Origin: Candidatus Binatia bacterium
GTDB taxonomy: Bacteria > Desulfobacterota > Binatia > Bin18
Direction of reading: 5' to 3'
DNA: 64,000 nucleotides
Assembly (NCBI GenBank): GCA_965231775.1
Contig: OZ246888.1
Coordinates: forward strand, 785,757 to 849,756
Below are positions 247-63,921 of this stretch, piece by piece; position 1 is the first letter of the stretch, and each line of letters opens with the position of its first letter. Under the pieces are notes generated by a model, which was not told the origin of the DNA, did no database searches, and saw nothing but the letters and a program-made list of their open reading frames with translations. The translations under genes and the position numbers were made by a program.

Positions 247-446
247 GTCAAGCCGGGTCGCGTATTTGTCGTCGCCAATCATCAGCAACGCTTGTCGTCG
301 CACTGCTCTGTGAATGCCGAGCCCGCGCTCCAGGTATTTATCCCCACCTTCGCCGAGATCCCGAACAACCTTGAAACCGAGCAGTTTGTAAAATTCAAGC
401 GACCGTTCAAAATTACTCACATTGATATTGACGTGGAAGATACCTT
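247..446 (-). pseudogene. Isolated internal fragment of the VOC gene at 7172-7621 (direct repeat copy A)
   Basis: 247-446 matches 7415-7614 with 3 substitutions in ~200 bp; lacks the gene's start and its 3' ~80 codons. Confidence 0.9.
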
Positions 447-569
447 AAGAGACAGGAACGGCAAGCAGATCCCCACCAGCGAAAGCTTTCCTGGTGCTGG
501 AGCGTCTACCCCCTTGATTGTTCATCGCTTGACTGGTCCTAGTTTCTCAACCCGTTGGTTCTTGCCCGG

Positions 570-728
570 ATGCCCCCGCTGGTCCTAGATGCGGGAGCGG
601 ACCTCTCTTTTGTCCGCGACTGGCTCGGACATGCCAACATCCAGAACACCCTTGTGTACGCGCAGATCACGAATACCAACCGGGACCAGCAGGCCCGAAA
701 GGTTTTTATGAGTCCCCGCGTAGCATGA
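570..728 (+). pseudogene. C-terminal remnant of a tyrosine recombinase/integrase
   Basis: 585-728 translates LDAGADLSFVRDWLGHANIQNTLVYAQITNTNRDQQARKVFMSPRVA*: box II LGH...T..Y with the catalytic Tyr; box I and the HxxR region are absent. Confidence 0.8.
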
Positions 729-1054
729 GGCTACCGCTCCTGCTTGCCTCTTGAGCCGCATGAGAAATTTGGCGGCTCATTACACGGACCCTCCTGTTGG
801 GCCAAAAAAAGATGCGGCGGCAACCAATCCAAGCACACGCCACTGCCGACGGGTCAGTGCCGGTGGGCGGCCCAAAAGCCAGGTAAATTAGAGCCACCGG
901 GGGCGATAGGTTCGATCATCGTCAACGGATGGAATCGATTCGTGTGGAGCTCTGTCAGGCGTATCAGCCAAAGAAGGAAGCTTTGTTTTGCAATTTTGAT
1001 GAAATTGATCAGTCCAGCCTGTGGTATGAAACACCTGAAAATGCTAGCCGTACG

Positions 1055-1071
1055 AGACAAGACGCTTGTCT
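1055..1071. promoter_or_regulatory. Inverted repeat, candidate repressor operator upstream of the Rieske gene
   Basis: AGACAAG-acg-CTTGTCT, 23 bp before the ATG at 1095 and just upstream of the AGGAGG RBS. Confidence 0.4.
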
Positions 1072-1094
1072 TATGAATACAGGAGGGTACGCGT

Positions 1095-2330
1095 ATGGCA
1101 ACAGCCACGATGAACGAGCCGATGACAAACGGCTCAGCACAAACCTGGCACGAGAAGTACAATTTGGAAACCAGCCCAATTCCAATCGAACCATACATTT
1201 CTGAAGAGTATTTCGAGCTCGAAAAAGAGCACGTCTTTCAAAAAGTCTGGCTGAATGTCGGCCGGGTTGAACAGATCCCCAACCCAGGCGATTACTTTGT
1301 CAAAGATCTACCCATATGCCAGACCTCTATTGTGGTGGTTCGTGGTAAACAGGGCCAGGTGCATGCTTTTCACAATATGTGTGCCCATCGGGGTAACAAG
1401 GTCGTCTGGGACAAAGGCGGTTCCTGCCAGAACTTCACCTGCAAATTCCACGGTTGGAGTTATGGGCTCGACGGCAACCTCAAATTCGTCCCAGACGAAG
1501 AGAGCTTTTTTGATCTCAAGAAAGATCAGTTGGGACTGACCCCGGTAGCGGTCGATTCCTGGGAAGGGTTCATTTTTGTGAATGTTGATCCCCATCCAAC
1601 CGAAACCCTCCAGGAATACTTGGGTGAGTTTGCAGAACGCATAAGCGGCTATCCTTTTGCGGAAACGTCTGGCCAGTGTTTTTCGTGGCACACGGAAATC
1701 AAATGCAATTGGAAGCTGCTTAAGGACGCCTTTCAGGAGGCCTACCATGTTGCCTCTCTACATGCCGGTAGTACAGCCGATGTCTTCACCAGCCGTCAAA
1801 ATCCGTTTGGGCACGCGCTCGACTTCCGGCTCTTCACACGTCATTGCCAGTTATCATCCTTTGGCAACCCCGAACATACGCCGACTCCAGTGGAGGCTCT
1901 GGCCCATCAAGCTGGCTCCATCATCGTTCCGAATGAGTTTACGCAAGACGCTTTACCCCCAGGCGTGAATCCTACCCGTGACCCGCGCTGGGCGGTTGAT
2001 GTGAATATCTTTTTCCCGAACTTCTTTGTCGACGTGGGCCACGACACCTATTTCACGTTCAATTTCTGGCCGTTGGCTGTTGACCGCTCCATCTGGGAAG
2101 CGGGCATCTATTTTCCGAAAGCGAAAAGCGCTTCCCAACGCTTTAGTCAGGAATACAGTAAGGTTCTCGTCCGCGACGTTCTCACCGAAGATGCCTCCAC
2201 GTTGGAACAGACCCAGGAAATGCTTGCCTCAGGTGCGAAGAAGGAATTCACCATCCAAGATCAAGAACTCCTCGTGCGCTTTAGTAATAAAGTATTGGAC
2301 GACTATATTGGCAAAGTGCCGGCGCATTAG
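1095..2330 (+). CDS. Rieske non-heme iron aromatic ring-hydroxylating oxygenase alpha subunit
   Basis: CAHRG...CKFHGW Rieske ligands, EAYHVASLH mononuclear-iron motif and distal EDA; RBS AGGAGG. Confidence 0.93.
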   Translation: MATATMNEPMTNGSAQTWHEKYNLETSPIPIEPYISEEYFELEKEHVFQKVWLNVGRVEQIPNPGDYFVKDLPICQTSIVVVRGKQGQVHAFHNMCAHRGNKVVWDKGGSCQNFTCKFHGWSYGLDGNLKFVPDEESFFDLKKDQLGLTPVAVDSWEGFIFVNVDPHPTETLQEYLGEFAERISGYPFAETSGQCFSWHTEIKCNWKLLKDAFQEAYHVASLHAGSTADVFTSRQNPFGHALDFRLFTRHCQLSSFGNPEHTPTPVEALAHQAGSIIVPNEFTQDALPPGVNPTRDPRWAVDVNIFFPNFFVDVGHDTYFTFNFWPLAVDRSIWEAGIYFPKAKSASQRFSQEYSKVLVRDVLTEDASTLEQTQEMLASGAKKEFTIQDQELLVRFSNKVLDDYIGKVPAH

Positions 2331-62503: not shown

Positions 62504-62525
62504 GCGTTTCCTTTTTTGACAGGCT

Positions 62526-62705
62526 CCCCTTCTCGCCTGAAGCGCGCGCGGTTGTCAAGCACCGTCTCGGCAGAACAGACACGGCGAATAGCTGACGCTC
62601 AAAAGGGGACGTGCTACAGTCGCGCGACTGAACTGAGCCCAAGAAAGGATAAAGGATATGGCCTATAAAATTTCCATTGGTATCGATTGGCAGGGCAAGC
62701 TCGAC
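62526..62705 (+). repeat. Direct repeat copy A: promoter plus first 16 codons of the LLM gene (then degenerates, stop at 62741)
   Basis: ~180 bp matching 63740-63921; MAYKISIGIDWQGKLD then ANWPTLPTFSR*. Confidence 0.93.
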
Positions 62706-62758
62706 GCCAATTGGCCGACGCTGCCGACCTTTTCGCGGTGAGAGGGGAATCCCCACTA

Positions 62759-63721
62759 TCACCTGCCGACGTAAATCGAATTTGACCCAACGCCGTTTGC
62801 CTTGGAGTAATAGCTCCATTCGATCCAGGAGCCGTCATAGTTGCGTATGCGTTCGATGGGGTAGCCCGTCAGGTAGAGTGCGAAGATGGGTGTAGTGGAG
62901 CGGACGCCAGACTGGCAGTAGAAGATGTGATCCTTGTCGGGCGACACTCCCATTTTCTTGAGGACGGCTCTGATCTCGGCTGGGGTCTTGAACTCGGCCG
63001 GCTTGTTGTTGGTCGCATTACGAAAGGATTGCCAACCGAGAAACTTCGCCCAACCAATGCGACCCTTGACGTAGGCACCCGGCTCCTGCCGTGAGCCCTC
63101 CCACTCCTCCGATTCCCGGGTATCCCAGACTTGGACCGTGGGGTCCGTCTCGGCAAGAGAAACATCGGCCATTGAAGCGATCCAGCCGCTAAGGGCCGGC
63201 TTAGCGACGAAATTACCTCTCTTCTTGTCCACAACGCCTCGGCCAAGCGCGGTGTCGTAGCCCGCAGCCTTCCAGCCCAGGTAGCCGCCATCAAGCACGC
63301 GCACATCGGTCTTCCCGTAGAGATAGAACATCCACCAGAGGCGTGTTGCGTCATACTTTTCGTCGTAGACCACGACCTTCGAGTCATTGTCGATCCCGAG
63401 CCGGCGGGCGAAATCCTGGAACTGCGCGCGGTTCAGCGCCATTCCGCTGTACGGAAAGACGGACTTGCTCTCGTCGGTGTAATCTGCCCGCCAGACGTTG
63501 TAGGAGCCCGGGATATGTCCCAGCGTATAGGAGATACTCTTGACCACGCCGATTACGATCAGCTTCGGGTCCTGCTTGTCCAGCAGCGACTTGAGAGCTT
63601 TGGCGGTGATCAGAGCATGACCGCGCGCGAAGTCCTTAGACGTATCGGCTCGCGCCGGGACGACTATTACCAGCGCTAGCGCGACGAAGAGCCCAATACT
63701 GATTCCGCACGTCAGCCTCAT
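62759..63721 (-). CDS. Two-domain sulfurtransferase (rhodanese) with Sec signal peptide
   Basis: MRLTCGISIGLFVALALVIVVPARA signal; GHIPGS, VRVLDGG...W, WDTR...E..G, FYCQSGVRS, NYDGSW.EWS. Confidence 0.9.
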   Translation of the reverse strand: MRLTCGISIGLFVALALVIVVPARADTSKDFARGHALITAKALKSLLDKQDPKLIVIGVVKSISYTLGHIPGSYNVWRADYTDESKSVFPYSGMALNRAQFQDFARRLGIDNDSKVVVYDEKYDATRLWWMFYLYGKTDVRVLDGGYLGWKAAGYDTALGRGVVDKKRGNFVAKPALSGWIASMADVSLAETDPTVQVWDTRESEEWEGSRQEPGAYVKGRIGWAKFLGWQSFRNATNNKPAEFKTPAEIRAVLKKMGVSPDKDHIFYCQSGVRSTTPIFALYLTGYPIERIRNYDGSWIEWSYYSKANGVGSNSIYVGR

Positions 63722-63739
63722 CACATCTCCCTCCGTGCC

Positions 63740-63921
63740 CCCCTTCTGGCCCGAAGCGCGCGCGGCTGTCAAGCACCGTCTCGACAGAACAGACACGGCG
63801 AATAGCTGACGCTCAAAAGGGGACGTGCTACAGTCGCGCGACTGAACTGAGCCCAGGAAAGGATAAGAGAAAAATGGCCTATAAAATTTCTATTGGTATC
63901 GATTGGCAAGGCAAGCTCGAC
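63740..63921 (+). repeat. Direct repeat copy B, continuous with the intact LLM gene
   Basis: Partner of 62526-62705, period 1214 bp. Confidence 0.93.
63806..63844 (+). promoter_or_regulatory. Promoter plus perfect 14-bp palindrome for the LLM gene (duplicated at 62592-62630)
   Basis: CTGACG-17 bp-TACAGT with extended TG; CAGTCGCGCGACTG overlaps the -10/TSS. Confidence 0.6.

Follow-up and report, generated by a model that had tools for sequence, protein, structure and literature searches.

Displaced gene tails beside toxin-antitoxin and other cassettes in a Candidatus Binatia chromosome: probable scars of gene turnover

Introduction

Why would pieces of ordinary genes stand as direct repeats on either side of unrelated genes in a bacterial chromosome? 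We addressed this question in a stretch of 64,000 nucleotides from a Candidatus Binatia bacterium (GenBank assembly GCA_965231775.1, contig OZ246888.1, forward-strand positions 785,757 to 849,756), which we call the window and number from its first nucleotide. The window contains five pairs of direct repeats, each made from part of a neighboring gene: a VOC/glyoxalase gene, a crotonase-type enoyl-CoA hydratase gene (ECH), a gene for an RHH (ribbon-helix-helix) antitoxin, pdxJ, and a luciferase-like monooxygenase (LLM) gene with its promoter region. A preliminary description of this sequence proposed that small circles, each consisting of a gene end and its cargo, are repeatedly taken up or generated and integrated through short homology.

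We found that the repeats are best explained as scars of gene turnover at hotspots that lie between core genes and lack an integrase, in a population of Binatia. We estimate a probability of about 60% that the underlying process is similar to sequential displacement by homology-facilitated illegitimate recombination (HFIR), in which homologous recombination anchored in a core gene is combined with a single microhomology joint, and the resulting units spread through their flanks. This reading is based on empty sites in related genomes, on the hotspot next to pdxJ, on a CTGA joint of single origin, and on units that start at pdxJ positions -77, -34 and about -8.

The repeats are real and are not products of assembly

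The five pairs were found again by a repeat search and a sensitive self-BLAST of the window, and Pfam upheld the gene names for all of them. Listed below are the positions, length, identity, genes between the copies, and synonymous:non-synonymous codon differences between the copies.

VOC, 247-446 and 7415-7614: 200 nt, 98.5% identical; Rieske oxygenase, acyl-CoA dehydrogenase, amidohydrolase and P450 genes; 2:1
LLM, 62523-62705 and 63737-63921: 185 nt, 93.5% identical; rhodanese gene; 2:0
pdxJ, 31523-31599 and 32326-32402: 77 nt, 85.7% identical; VapB/VapC; 6:5
RHH, 28535-28608 and 31303-31376: 74 nt, 85.1% identical; 3' part of the RHH gene, PIN and sulfatase genes; 7:3
ECH, 21356-21421 and 22142-22208: 67 nt, 80.6% identical; HigB/HigA; 1:5

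All five pairs are direct repeats with sharp borders, and they were the top five non-self matches in the 64 kb (E-values from 7e-9 to 1e-95). No inverted repeat of comparable size was found in the window, and none at the borders. Counting the shorter tails in related genomes described below, the duplications range from 8 to 200 nt, in contrast to the short, fixed target duplication made by a transposon or insertion sequence. The window has 7.8 short-range direct repeats per 100 kb compared to 2.9 in 1.31 Mb of unrelated loci, a modest enrichment in a comparison that is not rigorous: paralogues and tandem repeats inflate a few of the control loci, and the Binatia loci were picked around hotspots.

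The possibility that the repeats are assembly chimeras of co-occurring strains, named in the preliminary description as one finding that would undo its proposal, is close to nil. Related strains do co-occur in the samples, as seen in minor contigs, and the 200-nt VOC repeat forms one collapsed unitig in short-read graphs (two-in, two-out in the Logan assembly graphs). However, copies that are 80-86% identical have no assembly k-mers in common, and Logan contigs from three or four separate samples cross the ECH and pdxJ structures with 0 differences. The genome itself is a single contig of 5,193,919 bp (a 5.19-Mb chromosome), and matching structures are found in independent long-read chromosomes and contigs: the VOC pair in L087 and L088 (99.2-99.5% identical), the pdxJ structure in L083 and L098, and the ECH structure in L100. 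The closest public genomes are metagenome-assembled genomes of Candidatus Binatia that are about 90% identical in nucleotide sequence to, and syntenic with, the window.

Cassettes are stacked between pdxJ and a hydrolase gene

The interval from pdxJ to a conserved alpha/beta hydrolase gene is a hypervariable hotspot for toxin-antitoxin and defense genes in Binatia. In the window, from pdxJ to the hydrolase gene, it contains the following.

32325-32402, minus strand: tail copy T1, the last 77 nt and stop codon of the intact pdxJ gene (PF03740; gene 32325-33062)
31600-32324, minus strand: VapB/VapC cassette with its own upstream intergenic region (PF09957, PF01850; vapB 32013-32216, vapC 31596-32006)
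31522-31599, minus strand: displaced pdxJ tail T2, starting at pdxJ position -77 (from alignments)
30799-31451, minus strand: RHH antitoxin and PIN toxin cassette (Pfam RHH_1 and PIN; RHH 31167-31451, PIN 30799-31170)
28627-30765, minus strand: sulfatase-family gene (PF00884)
27864-28584, minus strand: MNT (nucleotidyltransferase)/HepT toxin-antitoxin pair (PF01909, PF01934), the last unit before the hydrolase gene (26723-27730)

The reading frame of T2 is still open and ends in a stop at the codon where pdxJ stops (TAG versus TAA), as had been noted.

Related genomes contain the empty site and both apparent parents of the T2 joint. In L001, pdxJ is directly before the hydrolase gene, with no insert. 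In L002, RHH-PIN is directly after pdxJ and colinear with the window at 89% identity; neither of these genomes has vapBC. L081 has a donor-type arrangement of pdxJ, intergenic region and vapBC, with no pdxJ tail after vapC; its vapC ends CTCGGCTGA|AGTACC, followed by unrelated DNA. The joint in the window reads CTCGA-CTGA-TTTGCG and continues after CTGA as TTTGCGACGC, with the TGA stop codon of vapC inside the first 4 nt of T2. Because CTGA is common to the end of vapC and to pdxJ position -77, we conclude that the joint lies on a 4-nt microhomology.

The joint between vapC and pdxJ(-77), ctcgaCTGATTTGCGACG, is identical in L083, L090, L091 and L093-L099, and thus in at least 11 genomes including the window. 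It is indifferent to what is downstream, which can be RHH-PIN, a SIR2 gene, a methyltransferase gene or a gene for a protein of 398 amino acids. Based on this identity, we conclude that the joint arose once, long ago. The ongoing uptake of cassettes that had been proposed is not supported; the events are old and of single origin.

Other units at the hotspot also start inside the pdxJ tail. Ten further loci have mixes of VapBC, RHH-PIN, other PIN pairs, a SIR2 gene, the sulfatase gene, and a methyltransferase gene with a gene for a DUF2806 protein. Four genomes (L090, L091, L094 and L099) have a tail, T3, made of the last 34 nt of pdxJ together with a vapB-type intergenic region; it follows a truncated antitoxin gene and precedes another PIN pair. 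L092 has a unit that starts about 8 nt inside the pdxJ tail, after the sulfatase gene, and RHH-PIN-sulfatase is contiguous there as well. Arrays of displaced units, as expected of repeated events, are seen as T1, T2, T3 and the tail of about 8 nt, and both stacking orders of units occur across the relatives.

The divergence between the pdxJ copies can be accounted for by time. T1 and T2 are 14% diverged from each other in the window and 13% in L083, and orthologous tail copies differ by 13-14% between these two genomes. Because divergence between paralogous copies is about the same as that between orthologous copies, we conclude that the difference reflects the age of the event and that no foreign allele is needed. 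We had considered that the divergent pdxJ tail of the window was a foreign allele that arrived with VapBC, and rejected this: the joint is common to 11 genomes and pdxJ in the window is evenly diverged over its full length. At this locus the toxin-antitoxin genes are more alike than their flanks, which was also considered as a sign of recent transfer; that reading was rejected based on segment-wise identities, which fit purifying selection on coding sequence, with neutral tails and intergenic regions.

Two other features of the hotspot were observed. Across L090-L099 the cargo differs greatly from genome to genome, with an N6/N4 methyltransferase gene beside the gene for the DUF2806 protein, a SIR2-domain gene, several PIN pairs and the 398-amino-acid gene of unknown type, and L095 has a DEAD-box helicase gene inserted upstream of pdxJ. 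In runs X2-X4, a minor contig of 1119 bp (10-17x, versus 50-180x for the main strain) joins the PIN gene region (window 31075-31135) to the intergenic region ahead of vapB (about 32293), a sign that a strain with another cassette order may co-occur.

Cargo is inserted next to ECH and LLM genes

A HigB/HigA cassette is inserted downstream from the ECH gene (Pfam ECH_1; 20529-21401).

21341-21421, plus strand: native ECH 3' tail and about 20 nt downstream, the left repeat copy
21422-22126, minus strand: HigB/HigA toxin-antitoxin cassette (PF05015 HigB-like toxin and HTH_3; HigB 21790-22080, with the HTH antitoxin downstream, ending at 21477)
22127-22212, plus strand: displaced, decayed ECH tail copy, 80.6% identical to the gene copy

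The displaced tail runs directly into the ribosome-binding site and start of a Vgb-lyase-like gene (22219-23811). In L001 and L002 (about 90% identical to the window) and in L101 (95-97% identical in the ECH flanks), HigBA is absent and a single ECH tail is directly before the ribosome-binding site and start of that gene. The left tail in the window is nearly identical to this single tail. L100 has HigBA with joints identical to those in the window.

The displaced ECH copy is a decayed tail and not a distant allele, because it is closest to the tail of the window's own clade and has one synonymous and five non-synonymous codon changes; it also has a premature stop. The idea of a foreign ECH allele was dropped: among the metagenome contigs searched, none matched the pattern of a functional allele that ends like the fragment (EWRKPVFRR*), and this ending was also absent from all 34 ECH tails taken from JGI loci.

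The HigBA unit may have moved between lineages. It is 96-99% identical between the window and L100, and the displaced tail is 99% identical, compared to just 83-90% for the flank; the identity switches in L100 where the Vgb-lyase-like gene starts, on a conserved block. L101 is a closer relative and does not have HigBA, and the unit was therefore probably moved by recombination. These comparisons would be consistent with movement between lineages or with precise loss from others. HigBA in L100 is the only case in which a transfer-like signal remains. As a separate observation, the L100 locus lacks an intact copy of this ECH gene and has two fragments of ECH tails; at L100 5660-5868 the gene is cut to its last ~190 nt, beside unrelated genes.

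A rhodanese gene is inserted in the region between the divergent genes for LLM and a major facilitator superfamily (MFS) transporter.

62523-62705, plus strand: left copy, the MFS/LLM divergent intergenic region and the first 48 nt of LLM, native-like
62706-63736, minus strand: rhodanese/sulfurtransferase gene with a signal-like N-terminus and a likely start at 63718, inserted cargo (PF00581)
63737-63921, plus strand: right copy, the intergenic region into the intact LLM gene (ATG at 63874), with 8 derived changes, two of them synonymous

In L084-L086 (91-93% identical), LLM and MFS are adjacent and divergent, with a single copy of the intergenic region and no rhodanese gene. The left copy in the window is almost identical to this single copy except in the region of the ribosome-binding site, a site that is now useless; the left copy now serves only the MFS gene (61172-62503, minus strand). 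The 8 derived changes in the right copy would fit a donor lineage about 5% diverged, although they are not decisive. No rhodanese homologue of more than 60% identity was found outside the window's own species, and we conclude on that basis that the gene was genuinely acquired.

Relatives thus have empty sites at ECH, pdxJ and LLM, one of the checks that the preliminary description had called for, and its view that gene pieces bracket inserted cargo holds at these three sites. It does not hold for the VOC and RHH pairs, in which one copy is an internal fragment. For HigBA and the rhodanese gene, we found no donor-type haplotype in which the cargo lies beside that core gene without a duplication.

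Circles and site-specific recombination account poorly for the joints

Integration of circles by a Campbell crossover would also put direct repeats on both sides of cargo. In this model, small circles made of a gene end and cargo enter through short gene-end homology and can be excised again via the repeats. We think this is unlikely. It does match the topology at ECH, pdxJ and LLM (repeat, cargo, repeat, with one intact gene) and the arrays of relatives, where each cassette is trailed by a tail copy. The window-like tract in L100 stops at the repeat edge, the absence of HigBA from the closest relative, L101, could be a precise excision, and resistance-gene circles formed from direct repeats are known (PMC10770853). 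However, the longest identical blocks between copies, 14 nt for pdxJ and 16 nt for ECH, are too short for efficient RecA-mediated crossover, and the copies are not reciprocal chimeras; each is of one type throughout. The first circle would itself require the illegitimate CTGA joint. For VOC and RHH, an internal fragment accompanies an intact gene; Campbell integration of such a fragment would have split the gene. The joints are old and of single origin.

Likewise, excision was not observed. No empty-site contig and no circular or precisely excised form was seen at ≥90% likeness in three deep metagenomes (X2-X4), as represented by Logan contigs, which drop rare variants. A skip of 803 bp in run X2 was considered as an excision product and rejected; it is the only one seen, and it was gone at ≥90% likeness and so belongs to another lineage, less than 90% alike. 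Of the proposed Campbell integration, what stands is that direct repeats flank the cargo, and a circle-based acquisition system is not needed to explain them.

A related idea is that the toxin-antitoxin and defense cassettes are mobile without a recombinase, with the displaced tails serving as portable homology arms for loop-out and re-entry at the same gene end elsewhere. Arrays might then grow at gene ends like integron arrays, without an integrase. The edge of the HigBA tract in L100 and the absence of the unit from L101 are compatible with this idea, which we nevertheless find very doubtful.

A site-specific recombinase encoded elsewhere in the genome, loading recombinase-less cassettes at gene 3' ends in an icd-like or integron-like manner, is highly improbable. 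Integrases that insert into protein-coding genes classically leave a duplicated gene 3' end, and the cassettes are compact (about 0.72 kb) and stacked beside pdxJ. Against this, no sequence is common to the pdxJ, ECH and LLM joints, inverted repeats are absent, and one joint cuts through an antitoxin gene. We found no common core or att motif at pdxJ -77, -34 and about -8, ECH -46 and LLM +48; attC-type structures were not specifically searched. Pfam scans of the open reading frames in the window revealed no intact recombinase or transposase, only integrase and InsA remnants, and the integrase remnant at 555-728 is unrelated to the toxin-antitoxin cassettes. Scans of the window for tRNA genes and Rfam families gave no matches. 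The absence from the window of an intact recombinase, and of a core motif shared by the cassettes, agrees with what the preliminary description had reported.

Internal fragments of RHH and VOC genes

The RHH copy that is not part of an intact gene is an internal fragment, located just after the stop codon of the sulfatase gene.

28535-28608, minus strand: RHH antitoxin fragment (codons 25-49) from a second allele, flanked left and right by non-homologous DNA

This fragment is 92-93% identical to RHH of the L090 group, compared to 85% to the window's own RHH gene, and its codon changes are mostly synonymous (7 versus 3). It is the remnant of a second, eroded RHH-PIN cassette and the only repeat copy that behaves like a foreign allele. 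The preliminary description had taken the copies in general for alleles from related strains; that is not the case for pdxJ, in which the divergence fits the age of the event, or for ECH, in which the fragment has decayed.

The VOC fragment lies in a complex region at the left end of the window.

225-260, minus strand: displaced 3' tail remnant of a class IV aminotransferase gene, beside the stop codon of a permease gene (self-BLAST)
247-446, minus strand: isolated internal VOC/glyoxalase fragment (codons 19-85), 98.5% identical to 7415-7614
555-728, plus strand: C-terminal remnant of a tyrosine recombinase (LGH...Y box), 57 amino acids (PF00589 positions 142-169 of 172; E = 0.0015, short of the curated cut-off)
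5606-5725, plus strand: IS1-type InsA, reduced to its N-terminal zinc ribbon (PF03811; E = 3e-4, short of the curated cut-off)
7172-7669, minus strand: intact VOC/glyoxalase gene, with the right repeat copy at 7415-7614 (PF00903)

At either end the VOC fragment meets unrelated DNA in an illegitimate joint. On the left it meets the aminotransferase-tail remnant, which it truncates in the window, at a 12/14 homeology. In strain L089 the same tail is 58 nt long and 96.6% identical (L089 13005-13062). The intact aminotransferase gene is 16.6 kb away (16865-18010, minus strand; matching tail 16865-16930), and the tail copy is a sixth scar, similar in kind to the five noted earlier and with a much larger block between the copies.

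The DNA between the VOC copies is in part strain-variable. A variable block at 261-5710, with the Rieske oxygenase, acyl-CoA dehydrogenase and amidohydrolase genes, is edged by the integrase and InsA remnants. L089 does not have it and has 534 bp of other sequence instead; this strain is 99.3% identical to the window right of 5711 and 93% identical in the permease gene. The P450 and VOC genes are ancestral neighbors, and the block ends before the intact VOC gene. We conclude that the cargo of this pair is in part a degraded mobile-element block with a right edge that is not marked by the repeat. The VOC piece itself is probably a leftover of erosion by deletion; that the 200-nt patch is templated filler DNA at a repair joint is a guess.

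L089 also lacks a second segment of the window, 11139-14248 (3.1 kb, with a luciferase-like monooxygenase gene and a TetR regulator gene). Around it, this sister strain is 99.3% identical to the window at 5711-11139 and 95.6% identical at 14248-20000.

Local duplication might also produce such pairs. In this alternative, 30-200 nt of target sequence were duplicated when an insertion, or the repair of a double-strand break, in a replicating chromosome proceeded by unequal joining of sister chromatids or by template switching, and the copies then diverged in place. The divergence of the pdxJ and ECH copies fits in-place drift from identical copies, both LLM copies are native-like around a rhodanese gene that has no close relative, and the VOC patch, 98.5% identical and illegitimately joined at both edges, resembles templated filler DNA. 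Local duplication leaves unexplained that the units of the pdxJ arrays have intergenic regions of different haplotypes (L002, L081) and that the RHH fragment is a better match to the allele of another lineage. We consider it quite unlikely.

Sequential displacement as the preferred explanation

Sequential displacement similar to HFIR would account for most of these observations. DNA from a related cell, in which the same core gene is beside another cassette, would recombine homologously in the core gene, the anchor. The far end of the foreign DNA would be joined illegitimately at a microhomology of a few bases, a few tens to about 200 nt inside the homologous region. The core gene would remain intact with the new cassette adjoining it, and the recipient's own gene tail, with everything behind it, would be pushed downstream as a fragment. 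Repeats of the event would stack cassettes, each unit starting inside the gene tail. Homologous recombination in the flanks would then spread the units, and deletions would erode them to internal fragments such as that of RHH and probably that of VOC. We infer the order of events and the entry of the DNA as a linear molecule. The displaced copies behave as neutral relics, judged by the 1:5 codon changes in ECH and by the similar paralogous and orthologous divergence of pdxJ.

Several points weigh against this explanation. Microhomology can be read at only one joint, that of pdxJ T2, with L081 and L002 as the parents. In published HFIR experiments the usual outcome is reportedly deletion of recipient DNA, and that the outcome here would be a duplication is something we infer from the geometry. 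In L100 the window-like tract breaks off no more than about 20 nt from the repeat edge, short of the flanking gene, which the circle model also predicts. Lastly, the VOC fragment does not have a detailed explanation under sequential displacement.

Comparison to known systems

Sequential displacement by HFIR has been proposed for type VI secretion system (T6SS) effector-immunity arrays in Vibrio cholerae and for displacement of Rhs C-terminal regions (PMC5361080). Displacement of C-terminal regions in Rhs and CDI (contact-dependent growth inhibition) systems, with orphan modules, is attributed there to Jackson et al. 2009. In both those arrays and the window, modules enter beside a conserved gene region and older ones are pushed downstream, retaining a piece of the gene, without an integrase. 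In the window, however, the anchors are ordinary genes for housekeeping or metabolism (pdxJ, ECH, LLM), the cargo (toxin-antitoxin pairs, rhodanese) is unrelated to the anchor, and the retained piece is 8-183 nt.

Experimental demonstrations of HFIR itself come from Acinetobacter baylyi, Streptococcus pneumoniae and Pseudomonas stutzeri (de Vries & Wackernagel 2002; Prudhomme et al. 2002; Meier & Wackernagel 2003; all as cited in PMC5361080). The process in the laboratory and the one proposed here share one homologous anchor and one microhomology joint of 3-10 nt, with no dedicated recombinase. In contrast to the laboratory events, which are reportedly mostly deletions, the joint here is inside the anchor, hence the short duplication.

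Phage 21 and e14, located in icd of E. coli, provide a surrogate end for that gene, as is typical of integrases that target protein-coding genes. As in icd, the gene here is intact and a diverged copy of its 3' end is at the far side of the insert. The differences are that there is no integrase and no common core site, that the length of the duplication varies, and that the cargo is 0.7-1 kb.

The pdxJ interval is similar to previously described horizontal-transfer hotspots without an integrase (PMC5635113), core defense hotspots (PMC10250203) and toxin-antitoxin islets (PMC13617665): a hypervariable interval between two core genes (pdxJ and the alpha/beta hydrolase gene) that has toxin-antitoxin, SIR2 and methyltransferase genes, is turned over by recombination in the flanks and lacks mobile-element genes. 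Unlike in those three studies, which do not describe them, duplicated core-gene tails mark the borders of the units here. As with Campbell insertion-duplication and the cfr(C) circles in PMC10770853, the cargo stands between direct repeats and could in principle be excised; unlike in those cases, the copies are non-chimeric, the identical blocks are very short, and no circles or excised sites were seen.

Based on these comparisons, we conclude that the scars represent a known kind of turnover at gene-exchange hotspots and are notable mainly for the clarity of the tail record. These data do not establish a new class of mobile element. If the preferred explanation is correct, gene-tail fragments naturally record one-sided, illegitimate recombination in an uncultured soil phylum and allow it to be dated, and toxin-antitoxin and defense genes are stacked and swapped at hotspots without the machinery of mobile elements. 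Counts of such scars, and their distances from the homology boundary, could be used to gauge the frequency of HFIR in genomes beyond the laboratory models.

Other features of the window

Four open reading frames that encode proteins of 274-491 amino acids (14129-15097, 36046-37230, 47702-48526 and 48557-50032) have typical codon bias and no Pfam match. Self-alignment revealed two short palindromes with perfect centers, of 49 nt at 13838-13886 and 28 nt at 50469-50496. A GC-rich palindromic element, CCCTCTCCCagcgGGAGAGGG, is located at 24870-24920 between two convergent genes. Its depth in metagenome contigs is 340-1200x, compared to 12-170x on either side, and numerous different contigs lead into and out of it. 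Because of this depth and branching, we believe that the element is a very widespread short repeat, either REP-like or terminator-like.

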